DNA from: a virus
Lineage: Duplodnaviria > Heunggongvirae > Uroviricota > Caudoviricetes
Length of the DNA stretch: 5,339 bases
Direction: 5' to 3' (one strand)
Virus record (IMG/VR): IMGVR_UViG_2681813269_000006
A program made the translations under genes and the position numbers. The stretch's first letter is position 1; each line of letters starts with the position of its first letter. The notes under the pieces are model-generated. The model saw only the letters and a list, made by a program, of their open reading frames with translations, was not told the origin of the DNA and did no database searches. This document shows, piece after piece, positions 2 through 5,318 of this stretch.

Positions 2-370
2 GGAGTGTCCGTTAAACTCAGGCTACCTCAGTCTGCTGATTTGAGTCGCTACAGTGGCACGGTGGTTAACCGTCCGACGTTTTTTGCTTTTGCAAAAGGC
101 GCGGGTGTGATGGGGGAAGCGGGACCTGAAGCCATTCTGCCACTGCGTCGCGGTGCTGATGGTAAGCTGGGGGGTGTGGCGGATACTGGTGGTTCAGGCA
201 TGGTGATGTTTGCCCCGCAGTACAACATTGAGATCAATAACGATGGCACGAACGGGCAGATAGGTCCGGCTGCCCTGAAGGTGGTTTATGACCTCGGGAA
301 AAAAGCGGCCGCGGACTTTATGCAACAGCAGGCCCGTGATGGTGGCCGGTTAAGTGGAGCATACCGGTAA
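2..370 (+). CDS. H: Tail tape measure protein (gpH-like), C-terminal fragment; 5' end lies upstream of the window (copy 1, diverged type)
   Basis: Frame is open from the window edge to TAA at 368-370. Translation contains the tape-measure-like stretch NRPTFFAFAKGAGVMGEAGPEAILPL and the motif INNDGTNGQIGPAALK, which recurs at the end of the second H-like segment (2839..2886). The stop overlaps the ATG of the downstream M gene (TAATG), the H/M arrangement I recall for lambda. Confidence 0.8.
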   Translation, partial: GVSVKLRLPQSADLSRYSGTVVNRPTFFAFAKGAGVMGEAGPEAILPLRRGADGKLGGVADTGGSGMVMFAPQYNIEINNDGTNGQIGPAALKVVYDLGKKAAADFMQQQARDGGRLSGAYR

Positions 371-699
371 TGGAGACGTTTCACTGGAAAGTGCGCCCGG
401 ATATGAATGTGGTATCAGAGCCGAAAGTGGTGACAGTGAAGCTGGGCGATGGTTATGAACAGCGTCGTGCGGCGGGACTGAATAACCAGTTGTCGACTTA
501 CAGCGTGAAGATACGTGTTCGTAAAGGTGAACACCCATTTTTAAAAGCCTTTCTGGAACGGCACGGTGGCGTCCGCGCATTTCAGTGGACGCCACCTTAT
601 GACTGGAAGCCGATCAGGGTGGTTTGTCGTAAATGGTCGGCAAGCGTGGGGGCGTTGTGGGTAACCATAACGGCAGATTTTGAACAGGTCGTGGCATAG
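370..699 (+). CDS. M: Minor tail protein M, copy 1 (diverged homolog)
   Basis: 109-aa ORF, the same length as copy 2 (2973..3302). By my hand alignment 59 of 109 residues are identical to copy 2, including conserved blocks GDGY, TYSV, HGG, WTPPY and the C-terminal FEQVV. Position directly after the H stop matches lambda gene order. Confidence 0.85.
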   Translation: METFHWKVRPDMNVVSEPKVVTVKLGDGYEQRRAAGLNNQLSTYSVKIRVRKGEHPFLKAFLERHGGVRAFQWTPPYDWKPIRVVCRKWSASVGALWVTITADFEQVVA

Positions 700-708: not shown

Positions 709-1407
709 ATGCAGGATATTCCACAGGAAACACATCATGAGACGACACGCCTCACTCAGTCAGCCCAGGTGGTGCTCTGGGAAATCGATCTGACAGAGGT
801 CGGTGGAGAACGTTATTTTTTCTGTAATGAGCAGAACGAAAAAGGTGAGCCGGTTACCTGGCAGGGGCGGCAGTATCAGGCATACCCCATTCAGGGGACG
901 GGATTTGAACTGAACGGCAAGGGCAGTGCTGCCCGTCCGACACTGACGGTTTCTAACCTGCACGGAATGGTCACCGGGATGGCGGAAGACCTGCAGAGTC
1001 TGGTCGGCGGAACGGTGGTCCGGCGTAAGGTTTACGCCCGTTTTCTGGATGCGGTGAACTTCGTCAACGGAAACAGCGACGCCGATCCGGAACAGGAGGT
1101 GATCAGCCGCTGGCGCATCGAGCAGTGCAGCGAACTGAGCGCGGTCAGTGCCTCTTTTGTGCTGGCCACACCAACGGAGACGGATGGCGCGGTTTTCCCG
1201 GGGCGTATCATGCTGGCGAATACCTGTATGTGGACTTACCGTTCTGATGAGTGTGGTTACACGGGCAGGGCAGTGGCTGACGAGTTCGACAAACCAACGA
1301 CGGATATCCGGAAGGACAAATGCAGCAAGTGTATGCGCGGGTGTGAGTTGCGCAACAATACCGGTAATTTCGGCGGTTTCCTTTCCATCAATAAACTTTC
1401 TCAGTAA
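709..1407 (+). CDS. L: Minor tail protein L, copy 1 (about 88% aa identity to copy 2)
   Basis: 232-aa ORF, the same length as copy 2. Preceded by AGGAGG at 698..703 with a 5-nt spacer. The C-terminal cysteine cluster C-x9-C-x22-C-x2-C-x3-C (codons at 1225..1344) is conserved with copy 2. About 28 substitutions and no indels relative to copy 2. Confidence 0.9.
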   Translation: MQDIPQETHHETTRLTQSAQVVLWEIDLTEVGGERYFFCNEQNEKGEPVTWQGRQYQAYPIQGTGFELNGKGSAARPTLTVSNLHGMVTGMAEDLQSLVGGTVVRRKVYARFLDAVNFVNGNSDADPEQEVISRWRIEQCSELSAVSASFVLATPTETDGAVFPGRIMLANTCMWTYRSDECGYTGRAVADEFDKPTTDIRKDKCSKCMRGCELRNNTGNFGGFLSINKLSQ

Positions 1408-1411
1408 ATCC

Positions 1412-2155
1412 ATGACACAGACAGAATCAGCGATTCTGGCGCACGCCCGGCGATGTGCGCCAGCGGAGTCGTGTGGCTTCGTGGTAAGAACGCCGGAGGG
1501 AGACAGGTATCTTCCCAGCGAGAATATCTCCGGTGAGCCGGAGGAACGGTTCCGGATGGCTCCGGAGGACTGGCTGCGGGCACAAATGCAGGGTGAGATT
1601 GTGGCGCTGGTCCACAGTCATCCCGGTGGTCTGCCCTGGCTGAGTGAGGCTGACCGGCGGCTGCAGGTGCAGAGTGATTTGCCGTGGTGGCTGGTCTGCC
1701 GGGGGACGATTCATAAGTTCCGCTGTGTGCCGCATCTCACCGGGCGGCGCTTTGAGCACGGGGTGACGGACTGTTACACGCTGTTCCGGGATGCTTATCA
1801 TCTGGCAGGGATTGAGATGCCGGATTTTCATCGCGGGGATGACTGGTGGCGTAACGGTCAGAATCTCTATCTTGACAATATGGAGGTGACGGGTTTTTAC
1901 CGTGTCGCACTGACAGAGGCACAGCCGGGCGATGTGCTGCTGTGCTGTTTTGGTTCATCGGTGCCGAATCATGCCGCCATTTACTGCGGTGACGGCGGGC
2001 TGCTGCACCATATTCCTGAACAACTGAGCAAACGAGAGAGGTACACCGACAAATGGCAGCGACGCACACACTCCCTCTGGCGTCACCGGGCATGGCGCGC
2101 ATCTGCCTTTACGGGGATTTACAACGATTTGGTCGCCGCATCGACCTTCGTGTGA
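1412..2155 (+). CDS. K: Tail assembly protein K, copy 1; N-terminal JAMM/MPN-like domain plus C-terminal NlpC/P60-like domain
   Basis: 247-aa ORF starting 4 nt after the L stop. It contains HSHPGGLPWLSEAD (H-x-H-x7-S-x2-D, a JAMM signature) with an upstream AESCGF glutamate. The C-terminal half has Cys/His candidates typical of NlpC/P60 (GVTDCYTLF, VPNHAAIY). About 20 substitutions relative to copy 2. The ORF-track start at 1148 is an upstream extension that overlaps L in another frame and is not used here. An internal in-frame ATG at 1556 corresponds to a shorter 199-aa form. Confidence 0.85.
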   Translation: MTQTESAILAHARRCAPAESCGFVVRTPEGDRYLPSENISGEPEERFRMAPEDWLRAQMQGEIVALVHSHPGGLPWLSEADRRLQVQSDLPWWLVCRGTIHKFRCVPHLTGRRFEHGVTDCYTLFRDAYHLAGIEMPDFHRGDDWWRNGQNLYLDNMEVTGFYRVALTEAQPGDVLLCCFGSSVPNHAAIYCGDGGLLHHIPEQLSKRERYTDKWQRRTHSLWRHRAWRASAFTGIYNDLVAASTFV

Positions 2156-2486: not shown

Positions 2487-2976
2487 ACTGCTTAAGCAGG
2501 CAATGGTGGGGATTGTCGGGAGTATCGGCAGCGCCATTGGCGGGGCTGTTGGTGGCGGCGCATCCGCGTCAGGCGGTACAGCCATTCAGGCCGCTGCGGC
2601 GAAATTCCATTTTGCAACCGGAGGATTCACAGGAACCGGCGGCAAATATGAGCCAGCGGGGATTGTTCACCGTGGTGAATTTGTCTTCACGAAGGAGGCA
2701 ACCAGCCGGATTGGCGTGGGGAATCTCTACCGGCTGATGCGCGGCTATGCCACCGGTGGTTATGTCGGTACACCGGGCAGTCTGGCTGACAGCCGGTCGC
2801 AGGCGTCCGGGACGTTTGAGCAGAATAACCATGTGGTGATTAACAACGACGGCACGAACGGGCAGATAGGTCCGGCTGCTCTGAAGGCGGTGTATGACAT
2901 GGCCCGCAAGGGTGCCCGTGATGAAATTCAGACACAGATGCGTGATGGTGGCCTGTTCTCCGGAGGTGGACGATGA
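2053..2976 (+). CDS. Chimeric ORF: tail assembly protein I N-terminal 144 codons fused in frame to a tape-measure (gpH-like) C-terminal 163 codons
   Basis: Nucleotides 2053..2486 are identical to 4647..5080, the 5' part of I copy 2. From 2487 the sequence leaves I and encodes RLLKQAMVGIVGSIGSAIGG...INNDGTNGQIGPAALKAVYDMARKGARDEIQTQMRDGGLFSGGGR, which parallels the H C-terminus at 2..370. It ends with a TGA overlapping the ATG of M copy 2 (ATGA at 2973..2976). Whether it is expressed or functional is unknown. Confidence 0.55.
   Translation: MAATHTLPLASPGMARICLYGDLQRFGRRIDLRVKTGAEAIRALATQLPAFRQKLSDGWYQVRIAGRDVSTSGLTAQLHETLPDGAVIHIVPRVAGAKSGGVFQIVLGAAAIAGSFFTAGATLAAWGAAIGTGGMTGILFSLGARLLKQAMVGIVGSIGSAIGGAVGGGASASGGTAIQAAAAKFHFATGGFTGTGGKYEPAGIVHRGEFVFTKEATSRIGVGNLYRLMRGYATGGYVGTPGSLADSRSQASGTFEQNNHVVINNDGTNGQIGPAALKAVYDMARKGARDEIQTQMRDGGLFSGGGR
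2962..2966 (+). promoter_or_regulatory. Shine-Dalgarno sequence (GGAGG) for M copy 2, embedded in the 3' end of the H-like coding sequence
   Basis: GGAGG lies 6 nt upstream of the ATG at 2973; it encodes the terminal SGGGR of the H-like segment. Confidence 0.55.
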
Positions 2977-3302
2977 AAACCTTCCGCTGGAAAGTGAAAC
3001 CCGGTATGGATGTGGCTTCGGCCCCTTCTGTAAGAAAGGTGCGCTTTGGTGATGGCTATTCCCAGCGAGCGCCTGCCGGGCTGAATGCCAACCTGAAAAC
3101 GTACAGCGTGACGCTTTCTGTCCCCCGTGAGGAGGCCACGGTACTGGAGTCGTTTCTGGAAGAGCACGGGGGCTGGAAATCCTTTCTGTGGACGCCGCCT
3201 TATGAGTGGCGGCAGATAAAGGTGACCTGCGCAAAATGGTCGTCGCGGGTCAGTATGCTGCGTGTTGAGTTCAGCGCAGAGTTTGAACAGGTGGTGAACT
3301 GA
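2973..3302 (+). CDS. M: Minor tail protein M, copy 2 (lambda-like)
   Basis: 109-aa ORF MKTFRWKVKPGMDVASAPSV..., which I recall as matching lambda gpM. GGAGG at 2962..2966 lies 6 nt upstream of the ATG. Its stop overlaps the L start (TGATG at 3300..3304). Confidence 0.9.
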   Translation: MKTFRWKVKPGMDVASAPSVRKVRFGDGYSQRAPAGLNANLKTYSVTLSVPREEATVLESFLEEHGGWKSFLWTPPYEWRQIKVTCAKWSSRVSMLRVEFSAEFEQVVN

Positions 3303-4000
3303 TGCAGGATATCCGGCAGGAAACACTGAATGAATGCACCCGTGCGGAGCAGTCGGCCAGCGTGGTGCTCTGGGAAATCGACCTGACAGAGGTCGGTGGA
3401 GAACGTTATTTTTTCTGTAATGAGCAGAACGAAAAAGGTGAGCCGGTCACCTGGCAGGGGCGACAGTATCAGCCGTATCCCATTCAGGGGAGCGGTTTTG
3501 AACTGAATGGCAAAGGCACCAGTACGCGCCCCACGCTGACGGTTTCTAACCTGTACGGTATGGTCACCGGGATGGCGGAAGATCTGCAGAGTCTGGTCGG
3601 CGGAACGGTGGTCCGGCGTAAGGTTTACGCCCGTTTTCTGGATGCGGTGAACTTCGTCAACGGAAACAGTTACGCCGATCCGGAGCAGGAGGTGATCAGC
3701 CGCTGGCGCATTGAGCAGTGCAGCGAACTGAGCGCGGTGAGTGCCTCCTTTGTACTGTCCACGCCGACGGAAACGGATGGCGCTGTTTTTCCGGGACGTA
3801 TCATGCTGGCCAATACCTGCACCTGGACCTATCGCGGTGACGAGTGCGGTTATAGCGGTCCGGCTGTCGCGGATGAATATGACCAGCCAACGTCCGATAT
3901 CACGAAGGATAAATGCAGCAAATGCCTGAGCGGTTGTAAGTTCCGCAATAACGTCGGCAACTTTGGCGGCTTCCTTTCCATTAACAAACTTTCGCAGTAA
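3302..4000 (+). CDS. L: Minor tail protein L, copy 2 (lambda-like); putative iron-sulfur cluster-binding tail tip protein
   Basis: 232-aa ORF MQDIRQETLNECTRAEQSASVVLWEIDL..., which I recall as matching lambda gpL. Conserved C-terminal cysteine cluster (codons 3818..3937). Confidence 0.92.
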   Translation: MQDIRQETLNECTRAEQSASVVLWEIDLTEVGGERYFFCNEQNEKGEPVTWQGRQYQPYPIQGSGFELNGKGTSTRPTLTVSNLYGMVTGMAEDLQSLVGGTVVRRKVYARFLDAVNFVNGNSYADPEQEVISRWRIEQCSELSAVSASFVLSTPTETDGAVFPGRIMLANTCTWTYRGDECGYSGPAVADEYDQPTSDITKDKCSKCLSGCKFRNNVGNFGGFLSINKLSQ

Positions 4001-4005
4001 ATCCC

Positions 4006-4749
4006 ATGACACAGACAGAATCAGCGATTCTGGCGCACGCCCGGCGATGTGCGCCAGCGGAGTCGTGCGGCTTCGTGGTAAGCACGCCGGAGGGGGAAAG
4101 ATATTTTCCCTGCGTGAATATCTCCGGTGAGCCGGAGGCGTATTTCCGTATGTCGCCGGAAGACTGGCTGCAGGCAGAAATGCAGGGTGAGATTGTGGCG
4201 CTGGTCCACAGCCACCCCGGTGGTCTGCCCTGGCTGAGTGAGGCCGACCGGCGGCTGCAGGTGCAGAGTGATTTGCCGTGGTGGCTGGTCTGCCGGGGGA
4301 CGATTCATAAGTTCCGCTGTGTGCCGCATCTCACCGGGCGGCGCTTTGAGCACGGTGTGACGGACTGTTACACACTGTTCCGGGATGCTTATCATCTGGC
4401 GGGGATTGAGATGCCGGACTTTTATCGTGAGGATGACTGGTGGCGTAACGGCCAGAATCTCTATCTGGATAATCTGGAGGCGACGGGGCTGTATCAGGTG
4501 CCGTTGTCAGCGGCACAGCCGGGCGATGTGCTGCTGTGCTGTTTTGGTTCATCAGTGCCGAATCACGCCGCAATTTACTGCGGCGACGGCGAGCTGCTGC
4601 ACCATATTCCTGAACAACTGAGCAAACGAGAGAGGTACACCGACAAATGGCAGCGACGCACACACTCCCTCTGGCGTCACCGGGCATGGCGCGCATCTGC
4701 CTTTACGGGGATTTACAACGATTTGGTCGCCGCATCGACCTTCGTGTGA
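4006..4749 (+). CDS. K: Tail assembly protein K, copy 2 (lambda-like); JAMM/MPN plus NlpC/P60 domains
   Basis: 247-aa ORF starting 5 nt after the L stop, with the same HSHPGGLPWLSEAD motif and NlpC/P60-like Cys/His as copy 1. The internal ATG at 4150 would give the 199-aa form that I recall as the database annotation for lambda K. The longer form is preferred here because it includes the AESCGF glutamate expected for a complete JAMM fold. Confidence 0.88.
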   Translation: MTQTESAILAHARRCAPAESCGFVVSTPEGERYFPCVNISGEPEAYFRMSPEDWLQAEMQGEIVALVHSHPGGLPWLSEADRRLQVQSDLPWWLVCRGTIHKFRCVPHLTGRRFEHGVTDCYTLFRDAYHLAGIEMPDFYREDDWWRNGQNLYLDNLEATGLYQVPLSAAQPGDVLLCCFGSSVPNHAAIYCGDGELLHHIPEQLSKRERYTDKWQRRTHSLWRHRAWRASAFTGIYNDLVAASTFV

Positions 4750-5080
4750 AAACGGGGGCTGAAGCCATCCGGGCACTGGCCACACAGCTCCCGGCGTTTC
4801 GTCAGAAACTGAGCGACGGCTGGTATCAGGTACGGATTGCCGGGCGGGACGTCAGCACGTCCGGGTTAACGGCGCAGTTACATGAGACTCTGCCTGATGG
4901 CGCTGTGATTCATATTGTTCCCAGAGTCGCCGGGGCCAAGTCAGGTGGCGTATTCCAGATTGTCCTGGGGGCTGCCGCCATTGCCGGATCATTCTTTACC
5001 GCCGGAGCCACCCTTGCAGCATGGGGGGCAGCCATTGGGACCGGTGGTATGACCGGCATCCTGTTTTCTCTCGGTGCCAG
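4593..5080 (+). repeat. Direct repeat copy B: perfect-identity partner of 1999..2486
   Basis: Same comparison as for copy A; offset between copies is 2594 nt. Confidence 0.85.
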
Positions 5081-5318
5081 TATGGTGCTCGGTGGTGTGG
5101 CGCAGATGCTGGCACCGAAAGCCAGAACTCCCCGTACACAGACAACGGATAACGGCAAACAGAACACCTATTTCTCCTCACTGGATAACATGGTTGCCCA
5201 GGGCAATGTTCTGCCGGTTCTGTACGGTGAAATGCGCGTGGGGTCACGCGTGGTTTCTCAGGAGATCAGCACGGCAGACGAAGGGGACGGTGGTCAGGTT
5301 GTGGTGATTGGTCGCTGA
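4647..5318 (+). CDS. I: Tail assembly protein I, copy 2 (complete); N-terminal ubiquitin-like region followed by a Gly/Ala-rich hydrophobic segment
   Basis: 223-aa ORF MAATHTLPLASPGMARICLYGDL...VVVIGR, which I recall as matching lambda gpI. Its start lies 103 nt inside the 3' end of K in a different frame, the known K/I overlap. TGA at 5316..5318 is followed by what should be the I-J intergenic region. Confidence 0.9.
   Translation: MAATHTLPLASPGMARICLYGDLQRFGRRIDLRVKTGAEAIRALATQLPAFRQKLSDGWYQVRIAGRDVSTSGLTAQLHETLPDGAVIHIVPRVAGAKSGGVFQIVLGAAAIAGSFFTAGATLAAWGAAIGTGGMTGILFSLGASMVLGGVAQMLAPKARTPRTQTTDNGKQNTYFSSLDNMVAQGNVLPVLYGEMRVGSRVVSQEISTADEGDGGQVVVIGR

Follow-up and report, generated by a model that had tools for sequence, protein, structure and literature searches.

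Gene K and its surroundings

The stretch of 5,339 nucleotides (nt) analysed in this work (IMG/VR virus record IMGVR_UViG_2681813269_000006, referred to as the window) carries two lambda-type tail-tip gene sets in series, both of which include gene K. The copy at positions 4006-4749 is interpreted here as gene K of a lambda-type prophage tail module (H-M-L-K-I-J), the main product of which is a 247-residue protein with two peptidase domains, translated from the ATG located 5 nt past the L stop codon (probability approximately 0.9). The competing start is an internal ATG at codon 49 (position 4150 in this copy, 1556 in the other), from which the textbook 199-residue form of K begins. As stated in the original prediction, which was made from the DNA letters alone, both K open reading frames (ORFs) are complete and begin 4 to 5 nt after the L stop codon (Table 1).

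The two K copies differ by 51 nt and 20 amino acids. The predicted number of roughly 20 differences was correct, but ten rather than nine of them are located within the first 58 codons, seven of these within the first 48. In agreement with the prediction, both parts of the JAMM motif are untouched, as no difference affects residues 17-22 or 68-81.

Table 1. Features of the window (positions refer to the 5,339-nt stretch).
Feature	Position	Strand	Remarks
Gene K, copy 2 (lambda-type)	4006..4749	+	247 codons plus stop, intact ORF
JAMM/MPN domain (Prok-JAB, PF14464)	4012..4317	+	Residues 3-104; Pfam, PDB 2KKS, Foldseek
Glu19 codon, predicted JAMM catalytic glutamate (P-x-E-x-C-G)	4060..4062	+	Alignment to family and 2KKS
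GGAGG (4134-4138), 11-nt spacer, internal ATG (4150-4152, codon 49)	4134..4152	+	Start of textbook 199-residue form; possible secondary initiation site
Predicted zinc-binding JAMM part, H68-S69-H70-x7-S78-x2-D81	4207..4248	+	Family alignment
NlpC/P60 domain (PF00877, C40 peptidase)	4336..4677	+	Residues 111-224; Pfam, Foldseek
Predicted NlpC/P60 catalytic codons C121, H187, H199	4366-4368; 4564-4566; 4600-4602	+	
L stop codon, copy 2 set	3998..4000	+	5 nt before K ATG
Gene I, set 2	4647..5318	+	Domains: ubiquitin-like beta-grasp and C-terminal plug, with a Gly-rich linker between them; product predicted to be a substrate or partner of K
H, 3' end, set 2			
M, set 2	2973-3302		
L, set 2	3302-4000		
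Gene K, copy 1	1412..2155	+	247-codon ORF, likewise intact; diverged allele from second lambdoid prophage
L stop codon, copy 1 set	1405-1407	+	4 nt before K ATG
H, 3' end, set 1	5-370		
M, set 1	370-699		
L, set 1	709-1407		
I, 5' part, set 1			
Scaffold join	2487	.	Public contig CXNR01000256.1 has N, window has A

Domain architecture and motifs of K

Pfam profiles were applied with their curated cut-offs (25 bits for Prok-JAB, 23 bits for NLPC_P60). Both domains of the predicted JAMM/MPN plus NlpC/P60 architecture were recovered in the 247-residue protein: Prok-JAB (PF14464) scored 52.3 bits over profile positions 3-112 of 114, and NLPC_P60 (PF00877) scored 48.3 bits over its entire length (positions 1-105 of 105). 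When the 199-residue form was used as query, Prok-JAB matched with profile positions 63-112 only, and the score of 23.3 bits was under the cut-off. Since profile positions 3-112 map to residues 3-104, the profile comparison supports a JAMM domain that begins at the long N-terminus, upstream of the internal Met and not downstream of it. Two equivalog models did not reach their cut-offs, namely the desampylase model NCBIfam NF041370 (weak match over residues 3-103; 29.8 versus 130 bits) and the phage cell wall peptidase model TIGR02219 (26.6 versus 81.9 bits). By these scores, K is related to both families and a member of neither.

The sequence AESCGF, proposed to contain the glutamate of the JAMM metalloprotease signature, corresponds to residues 18-23 of K. 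The glutamate is E19, which is conserved in 105 of 106 relatives and falls on the Glu of PNEACG when the JAMM protein of PDB entry 2KKS is aligned to residues 7-105 of K. The rest of the motif is HSHPGGLPWLSEAD, residues 68-81 (nt 4207-4248), in which H70 and S78 are separated by seven residues (P71-L77), followed by S78-E79-A80-D81. The 247-residue K protein hence contains the complete JAMM/MPN+ motif E-x(n)-H-S/T-H-x7-S-x2-D as defined by Ambroggio et al. 2004 (PMC300881). As E19 is located upstream of codon 49, the 199-residue forms starting at 4150 or 1556 lack it, just as had been claimed.

Predicted structure

An AlphaFold2 model of the 247-residue protein, computed with an alignment of 106 sequences, had a mean predicted local distance difference test score (pLDDT) of 97.2 and a predicted template modelling (TM) score of 0.91; a single-sequence run gave a pLDDT of 39. 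In the model, residues 1-48 (pLDDT 97-98) form a helix (3-15) and two strands (21-27 and 30-36) of the first domain. The model displays an MPN fold and a papain-like NlpC/P60 fold. When it was compared to the PDB with Foldseek, the first group of matches comprised PfJAMM1 (5LDA/5LD9), 2KKS, Rpn11 and CSN5, all with probability 1.0. PfJAMM1, alone and with the ubiquitin-like SAMP2, was matched over 107 columns with TM scores of 0.67-0.69 on the target and a root mean square deviation of 2.5 A. The second group comprised the NlpC/P60 proteins MepS/Spr (8XUP, 2K1G), LytE (8I2E) and 9UBF at probability 1.0, and C. difficile autolysins. Beyond these PDB matches, a fold search of BFVD revealed other two-domain phage relatives only. 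According to the model, initiation at Met49 would remove the first helix and two core beta-strands of the JAMM domain together with its catalytic Glu.

Conservation of the N-terminal part among distant relatives

A stop-free run of 48 codons occurs by chance with a probability of about 0.1 and is not significant alone; codons 1-48 stand above chance because of the following conservation evidence, not because of the open frame as such. A HMMER scan that covered 1.84 billion representatives returned 2,773 proteins matching K. For full-length relatives with 35-51% identity, the alignments begin at residues 3-15 of the query and at residues 3-17 of the relatives, which means that the N-termini of the relatives coincide with the long start. 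Among 105 distant relatives, residues E19 (97%), C21 (91%), G22 (98%), N38 (97%) and F47 (92%) are conserved, and position 49 is Ile in 62%. In a curated alignment of 106 sequences, G22, N38, H68, H70, D81, D120 and H199 are invariant, and E19, C121 and H187 are each present in 105. Position 69 is occupied by S in 100 and by T in six sequences, and position 78 by S in 97 and by T in eight; with S and T taken as equivalent, each residue of the JAMM motif is found in at least 97% of the 106 relatives. Conservation thus extends upstream of the internal Met, with E19, G22 and N38 at 97-100%, and codons 1-48 encode a conserved portion that belongs integrally to the JAMM fold.

Further, a tblastn search of 50,697 phage genomes returned 1,750 records, and alignment starts were inspected in an even sample taken down the ranking. 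In this sample, which included phages of Mannheimia, Burkholderia, Ralstonia, Moraxella, Aeromonas, Pseudomonas, Klebsiella and Agrobacterium, 39 of 40 alignments begin at query residues 1-8. In the window ORFs (L-K-I), in natural contexts (loci L101-L105) and in four distant phages, K is preceded by L (PF05100) and followed by I (PF06805), with J further downstream in the module. In three of the latter (Mannheimia, HK633 and T1-like Sfin-5 phages) the annotated start of the K homologue lies 1-3 nt past the L stop or overlaps it; in Bcep176 it lies 48 nt past the L stop.

At the opposite end of the protein, the last approximately 20 residues are not conserved in distant relatives, with alignments ending near residue 226, and they show a high level of polymorphism across the lambda-like alleles. 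K shares 103 nt (4647-4749) with I, which is read in a different frame.

Variation among lambda-like K alleles

A set of 69 distinct K alleles with at least 85% identity to copy 2 was taken from 99 loci. All of them share the same ATG start and an invariant PAESCG, and no stop codon or frameshift was found in codons 1-48 of any allele. Codons 1-48 have 22% polymorphic sites, of which 59% are third positions, and 23% variable residues. For codons 49-110 these figures are 22%, 61% and 23%, and for codons 111-247 they are 19%, 57% and 23%. In codons 1-48, third positions account for 19 of 32 polymorphic sites, a departure from one third with p=0.002. Codons 1-48 vary like coding sequence, as does the rest of the gene.

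A base missing from the lambda reference sequence

The lambda reference entries AAA96551, NP_040598 and TIPK_LAMBD (Swiss-Prot/UniRef) describe K as a protein of 199 residues which lacks residues 1-48. This annotation results from a one-base deletion in J02459 that frameshifts the N-terminus. In the alignment, J02459 reads GGAGGC-TATTTCC while the window, lambda imm21 and HK630 read GGAGGCGTATTTCC. The missing G follows nt 14266 of J02459 and corresponds to window nt 4140 in codon 45. The ORF that begins at the long ATG (14133 in J02459) loses its frame at the deletion and ends after 76 codons, and the first ATG of the downstream frame, at 14276, is the annotated K start.

Among 119 phage records with this stretch, four have the deletion: J02459; its RefSeq copy NC_001416; OR474059, an engineered strain flagged UNVERIFIED; and OR974322, a 'chicken swab isolate' whose coordinates and annotation follow the style of the reference. 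Carriers of the G are DE3 (from BL21(DE3)), lambda imm21, imm434, h434 imm21, KT232076, PV340536 and LC730321. The last of these has a length of 48,503 bp, which exceeds that of J02459 by exactly one, and is otherwise identical over the 7.9 kb compared. In none of the 3,898 complete E. coli genomes with the stretch was the deleted form the best match; all best matches were gapped or mismatched to J02459. The missing G is most simply explained by a sequencing error of 1982 or by a mutation confined to the template used at that time. OR474059 and OR974322 are likely derived from J02459/NC_001416, and the latter is probably control-DNA contamination assembled against the reference.

As to OR974322 itself ('lambda isolate from chicken cloacal swabs'), the record is colinear with the reference, has the Sam7 base at 45352 and shows changes clustered at 45037-45041. 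The cI857 and ind1 changes are absent at their expected positions.

The G-carrying records HK630, DE3 and lambda imm21 are still annotated with 199 residues, a feature copied as 'similar to lambda'. The protein WP_000194780.1 ('C40 family peptidase') of the Prokaryotic Genome Annotation Pipeline (PGAP) and the 2025 lambda record PV340536 have 247 residues already. At least 1,000 contigs encode exactly the 247-residue lambda K sequence; among the names given to it are 'C40 family peptidase' and 'metal-dependent protease of the PAD1/JAB1 superfamily'.

It is extremely improbable that the canonical annotation is right, i.e., that K consists of 199 residues translated from 4150 only and that 4006-4149 is an untranslated spacer or relic. 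J02459, NC_001416, Swiss-Prot TIPK_LAMBD and many lambda-derived records say so, and the internal ATG has a strong Shine-Dalgarno sequence (SD). These entries go back to the frameshifted reference, the deletion of which recurs neither in other sequenced lambdas nor among the best matches from complete E. coli genomes, and the G-carrying records with 199 residues bear the 'similar to lambda' label. The supposed spacer shows codon-position-biased variation, is uninterrupted in 69 alleles and contains the family's most conserved residues, and the short form stays below the Pfam JAB cut-off.

Translation start of K

The longer start, which the original prediction had regarded as probably the real one, is supported by the domain boundary, the conservation among relatives and the 69 alleles. 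Since the long ATG lacks a Shine-Dalgarno sequence, its translation probably occurs by termination-reinitiation at the L stop, a mode that matches the close L/K spacing in other phages.

Several points weigh against the assignment of the 247-residue protein as the main product. The long ATG has no SD complementarity (duplex +0.7 kcal/mol), while the anti-SD duplex at the internal ATG (-9.5 kcal/mol) is similar to that of the M start and stronger than that of the L start. A literature search did not find an experimentally determined N-terminus of gpK. Between the two window copies, the ratio of nonsynonymous to synonymous substitution rates (dN/dS) is 0.48 in codons 1-48 versus 0.16 downstream, a comparison based on only 14 differences, which are clustered in predicted loops. 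The catalytic activity and the substrates of K are putative. Finally, OR974322 has both the Sam7 marker and the deletion; should its assembly have been independent of the reference, one laboratory stock might truly carry the deletion.

That the single-G deletion was truly present in the 1982 lambda cI857 Sam7 stock and survives in commercial lambda DNA is considered highly unlikely. If true, it would imply a viable lambda that builds its tails with K split into an N-terminal piece of 76 and a C-terminal piece of 199 residues, or with JAMM inactivated, and the JAMM half of K would be dispensable or able to work in trans.

A different possibility, additional to the 247-residue product, is that one gene gives rise to two products, the 247-residue protein via coupling to L and a 199-residue protein via SD-driven internal initiation at Met49. 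The short form would then consist of the NlpC/P60 domain with a non-functional JAMM remnant. The GGAGG located 11 nt before the internal ATG, with its duplex energy given above, speaks for such a site and against the long form as the sole product, as does the presence of this ATG in 67 of the 69 lambda-like alleles. Gene callers often pick the internal ATG, and clusters of the 199-residue form have thousands of members. Lambda also offers precedents for nested products in C/Nu3 and S107/S105. However, the GGAGG is made of codons G41-E42-P43-E44 and may be kept for coding; Met49 is present in only 17 of the 106 family members, and its ATG is replaced by ATA or CTG in two lambda-like alleles that are otherwise intact. 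In the structural model, residues 49-110 contribute strands and helices to a single JAMM fold, the N-terminal half of which would be missing. A second product is regarded as rather unlikely, and the 247-residue protein is retained as the main product.

Origin of the two gene sets

Identity between gene sets 1 and 2 is 91-93% where they match best and lower in parts of H and M. The window differs from the entire contig CXNR01000256.1 of draft assembly GCA_001256515.1 solely at position 2487, and this is the exact point where the I fragment ends and the 3' end of H starts. No homology was found across the 2487 junction, and none of 5,426 complete E. coli genomes contains it. The junction lies inside ORF 2053-2976, and the resulting 307-residue I::H fusion protein is absent from the gene index. 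Because of the N at the join, the lack of homology across it, and the failure to find junction and fusion protein, the two K "copies" are alleles from two lambdoid prophages brought together by the scaffolder, and no duplication took place. A real tandem duplication with an I::H fusion was rejected on the same grounds. K copies 1 and 2 are still usable as two independent alleles.

The exact copy 1 K protein is found on four draft contigs only. On one contig with this exact allele, FUBD01000174.1 (2219-4768), a first I (190 residues) is followed by a 413-residue ORF without Pfam match, a second I (213 residues) and then J; this repeat arrangement is possibly another assembly artefact.

The K frame of copy 1 is open upstream to a GTG at 1148 (335 residues; window 1148-2155), where it runs across L in a different frame. 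Because the extension is missing in copy 2 and without conservation, it is an open frame that arose by chance.

Proposed function of K and neighbouring gene I

The gpK protein is required for lambda tail assembly, is undetected in virions by mass spectrometry and is unresolved by cryo-electron microscopy (cryo-EM; PMC10721106, PMC12617516). In the gpI protein, an N-terminal ubiquitin-like (Ubl) beta-grasp domain with a conserved glycine at its end is followed by a Gly-rich linker and a C-terminal domain (PMC1779556). In cryo-EM of the tail tip, gpI is resolved only from residues 134/135 to 222/223. The gpH protein is cleaved in a Gly-rich region.

K is very probably a non-structural tail-tip assembly factor with two peptidase domains, and it may act as a transient assembly peptidase. 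Its N-terminal domain is a JAMM/MPN zinc metalloprotease domain with E19 as putative general base, H68, H70 and D81 as predicted zinc ligands, and S78 as a further motif residue. The C-terminal domain is a papain-like cysteine peptidase domain of the NlpC/P60 type with C121, H187 and H199. The JAMM domain is predicted to cut gpI after the Ubl domain, at its C-terminal glycine (approximately G96 in the 223-residue numbering), during tip assembly; cleavage of the gpI Ubl domain by the JAMM domain of K was proposed by Iyer, Burroughs and Aravind 2006 (PMC1779556). Candidate targets of the NlpC/P60 domain are gpI or gpH, and one of the two peptidases of K might also process gpH.

There is a slight chance that the JAMM domain is a catalytically dead scaffold like the MPN- domains of Rpn8 and CSN6, with NlpC/P60 as the sole enzyme. 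The exact N-terminus would then matter for folding and not for catalysis. Inactive MPN- domains characteristically lack the motif residues. In K the full E...HxH...S..D motif is present and conserved in the relatives as described above, which speaks against a dead domain. In line with such a domain, no activity has been reported for gpK, the role and location of which are still called unknown (PMC10721106, PMC12617516).

Gene I has alternative starts at ATG 4686 (M14) and GTG 4746. A PGAP-style call uses GTG 4746 and yields a protein of 190 residues, with a start that overlaps the K stop. In this form the Lambda_tail_I/ubiquitin-like Pfam domain is cut to profile positions 26-83 of 83; in the 223-residue form it covers positions 2-83, from residue 14. 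A good SD precedes ATG 4647 (-9.3 kcal/mol), and none was found for ATG 4686 and GTG 4746. The 190-residue annotation of gene I is probably too short.

Previous knowledge of K and use of the 199-residue form

The combination of JAB and NlpC/P60 domains in lambda K was described by Anantharaman and Aravind 2003 and Iyer et al. 2006 (PMC1779556), and K was listed as a JAMM protein by Ambroggio et al. 2004 (PMC300881). The architecture (literature) and the 247-residue model (RefSeq for prophages) are already known. The searchable literature yielded no statement on the K start or on the discrepancy in the reference, although lambda specialists may already know of it. Added here are the explicit cause of the 199-residue lambda annotation and quantitative support for the long start. 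This increment matters mainly for curation and for cloning work that relies on the reference annotation of K.

Lambda is a reference phage, and gpK is among its last tail proteins without known role. The 199-residue form is in use in the reference genome, in Swiss-Prot, in an HHpred analysis of '199 residues' (PMC7291167) and in a gene library listing NP_040598. This form lacks a third of the JAMM domain including the catalytic glutamate, and a construct based on it probably can neither fold nor cleave. The 247-residue form makes the prediction of 2006, a phage JAMM peptidase processing the Ubl domain of gpI, directly testable, and it bears on the question of which enzyme cleaves gpH. It also provides an example of how a 40-year-old single-base discrepancy spreads by similarity transfer of annotation.

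Comparison with known systems

K shares the Cys-His-His triad, the PF00877 domain and the fold with NlpC/P60 peptidases such as MepS/Spr, LytE and phage tail lysins. It has neither a signal peptide nor a cell-wall-binding domain. A role of gpK as a wall-degrading tail lysin is unlikely because the protein is undetected in virions (PMC10721106).

With JAMM/MPN+ isopeptidases (the desampylases PfJAMM1 and HvJAMM, AfJAMM, DSY2949/2KKS, Rpn11 and CSN5) K has the complete motif and the fold in common, and the neighbourhood of a gene for a ubiquitin-like beta-grasp protein (gpI) is a further likeness. It differs from them by its fusion to NlpC/P60 and by the absence of an E1-like or E2-like partner in the tail module.

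The closest known system is lambda gpK itself (TAPK family), with which the window K shares the L-K-I-J gene order and the JAB plus NlpC/P60 architecture (PMC1779556). Once the missing G is restored, both proteins are 99.6% identical over 247 residues, with two nucleotide differences and a single amino acid exchange (H140Y). The lambda reference entries differ by their length of 199 residues, and the G missing from J02459 is present in the window (nt 4140).

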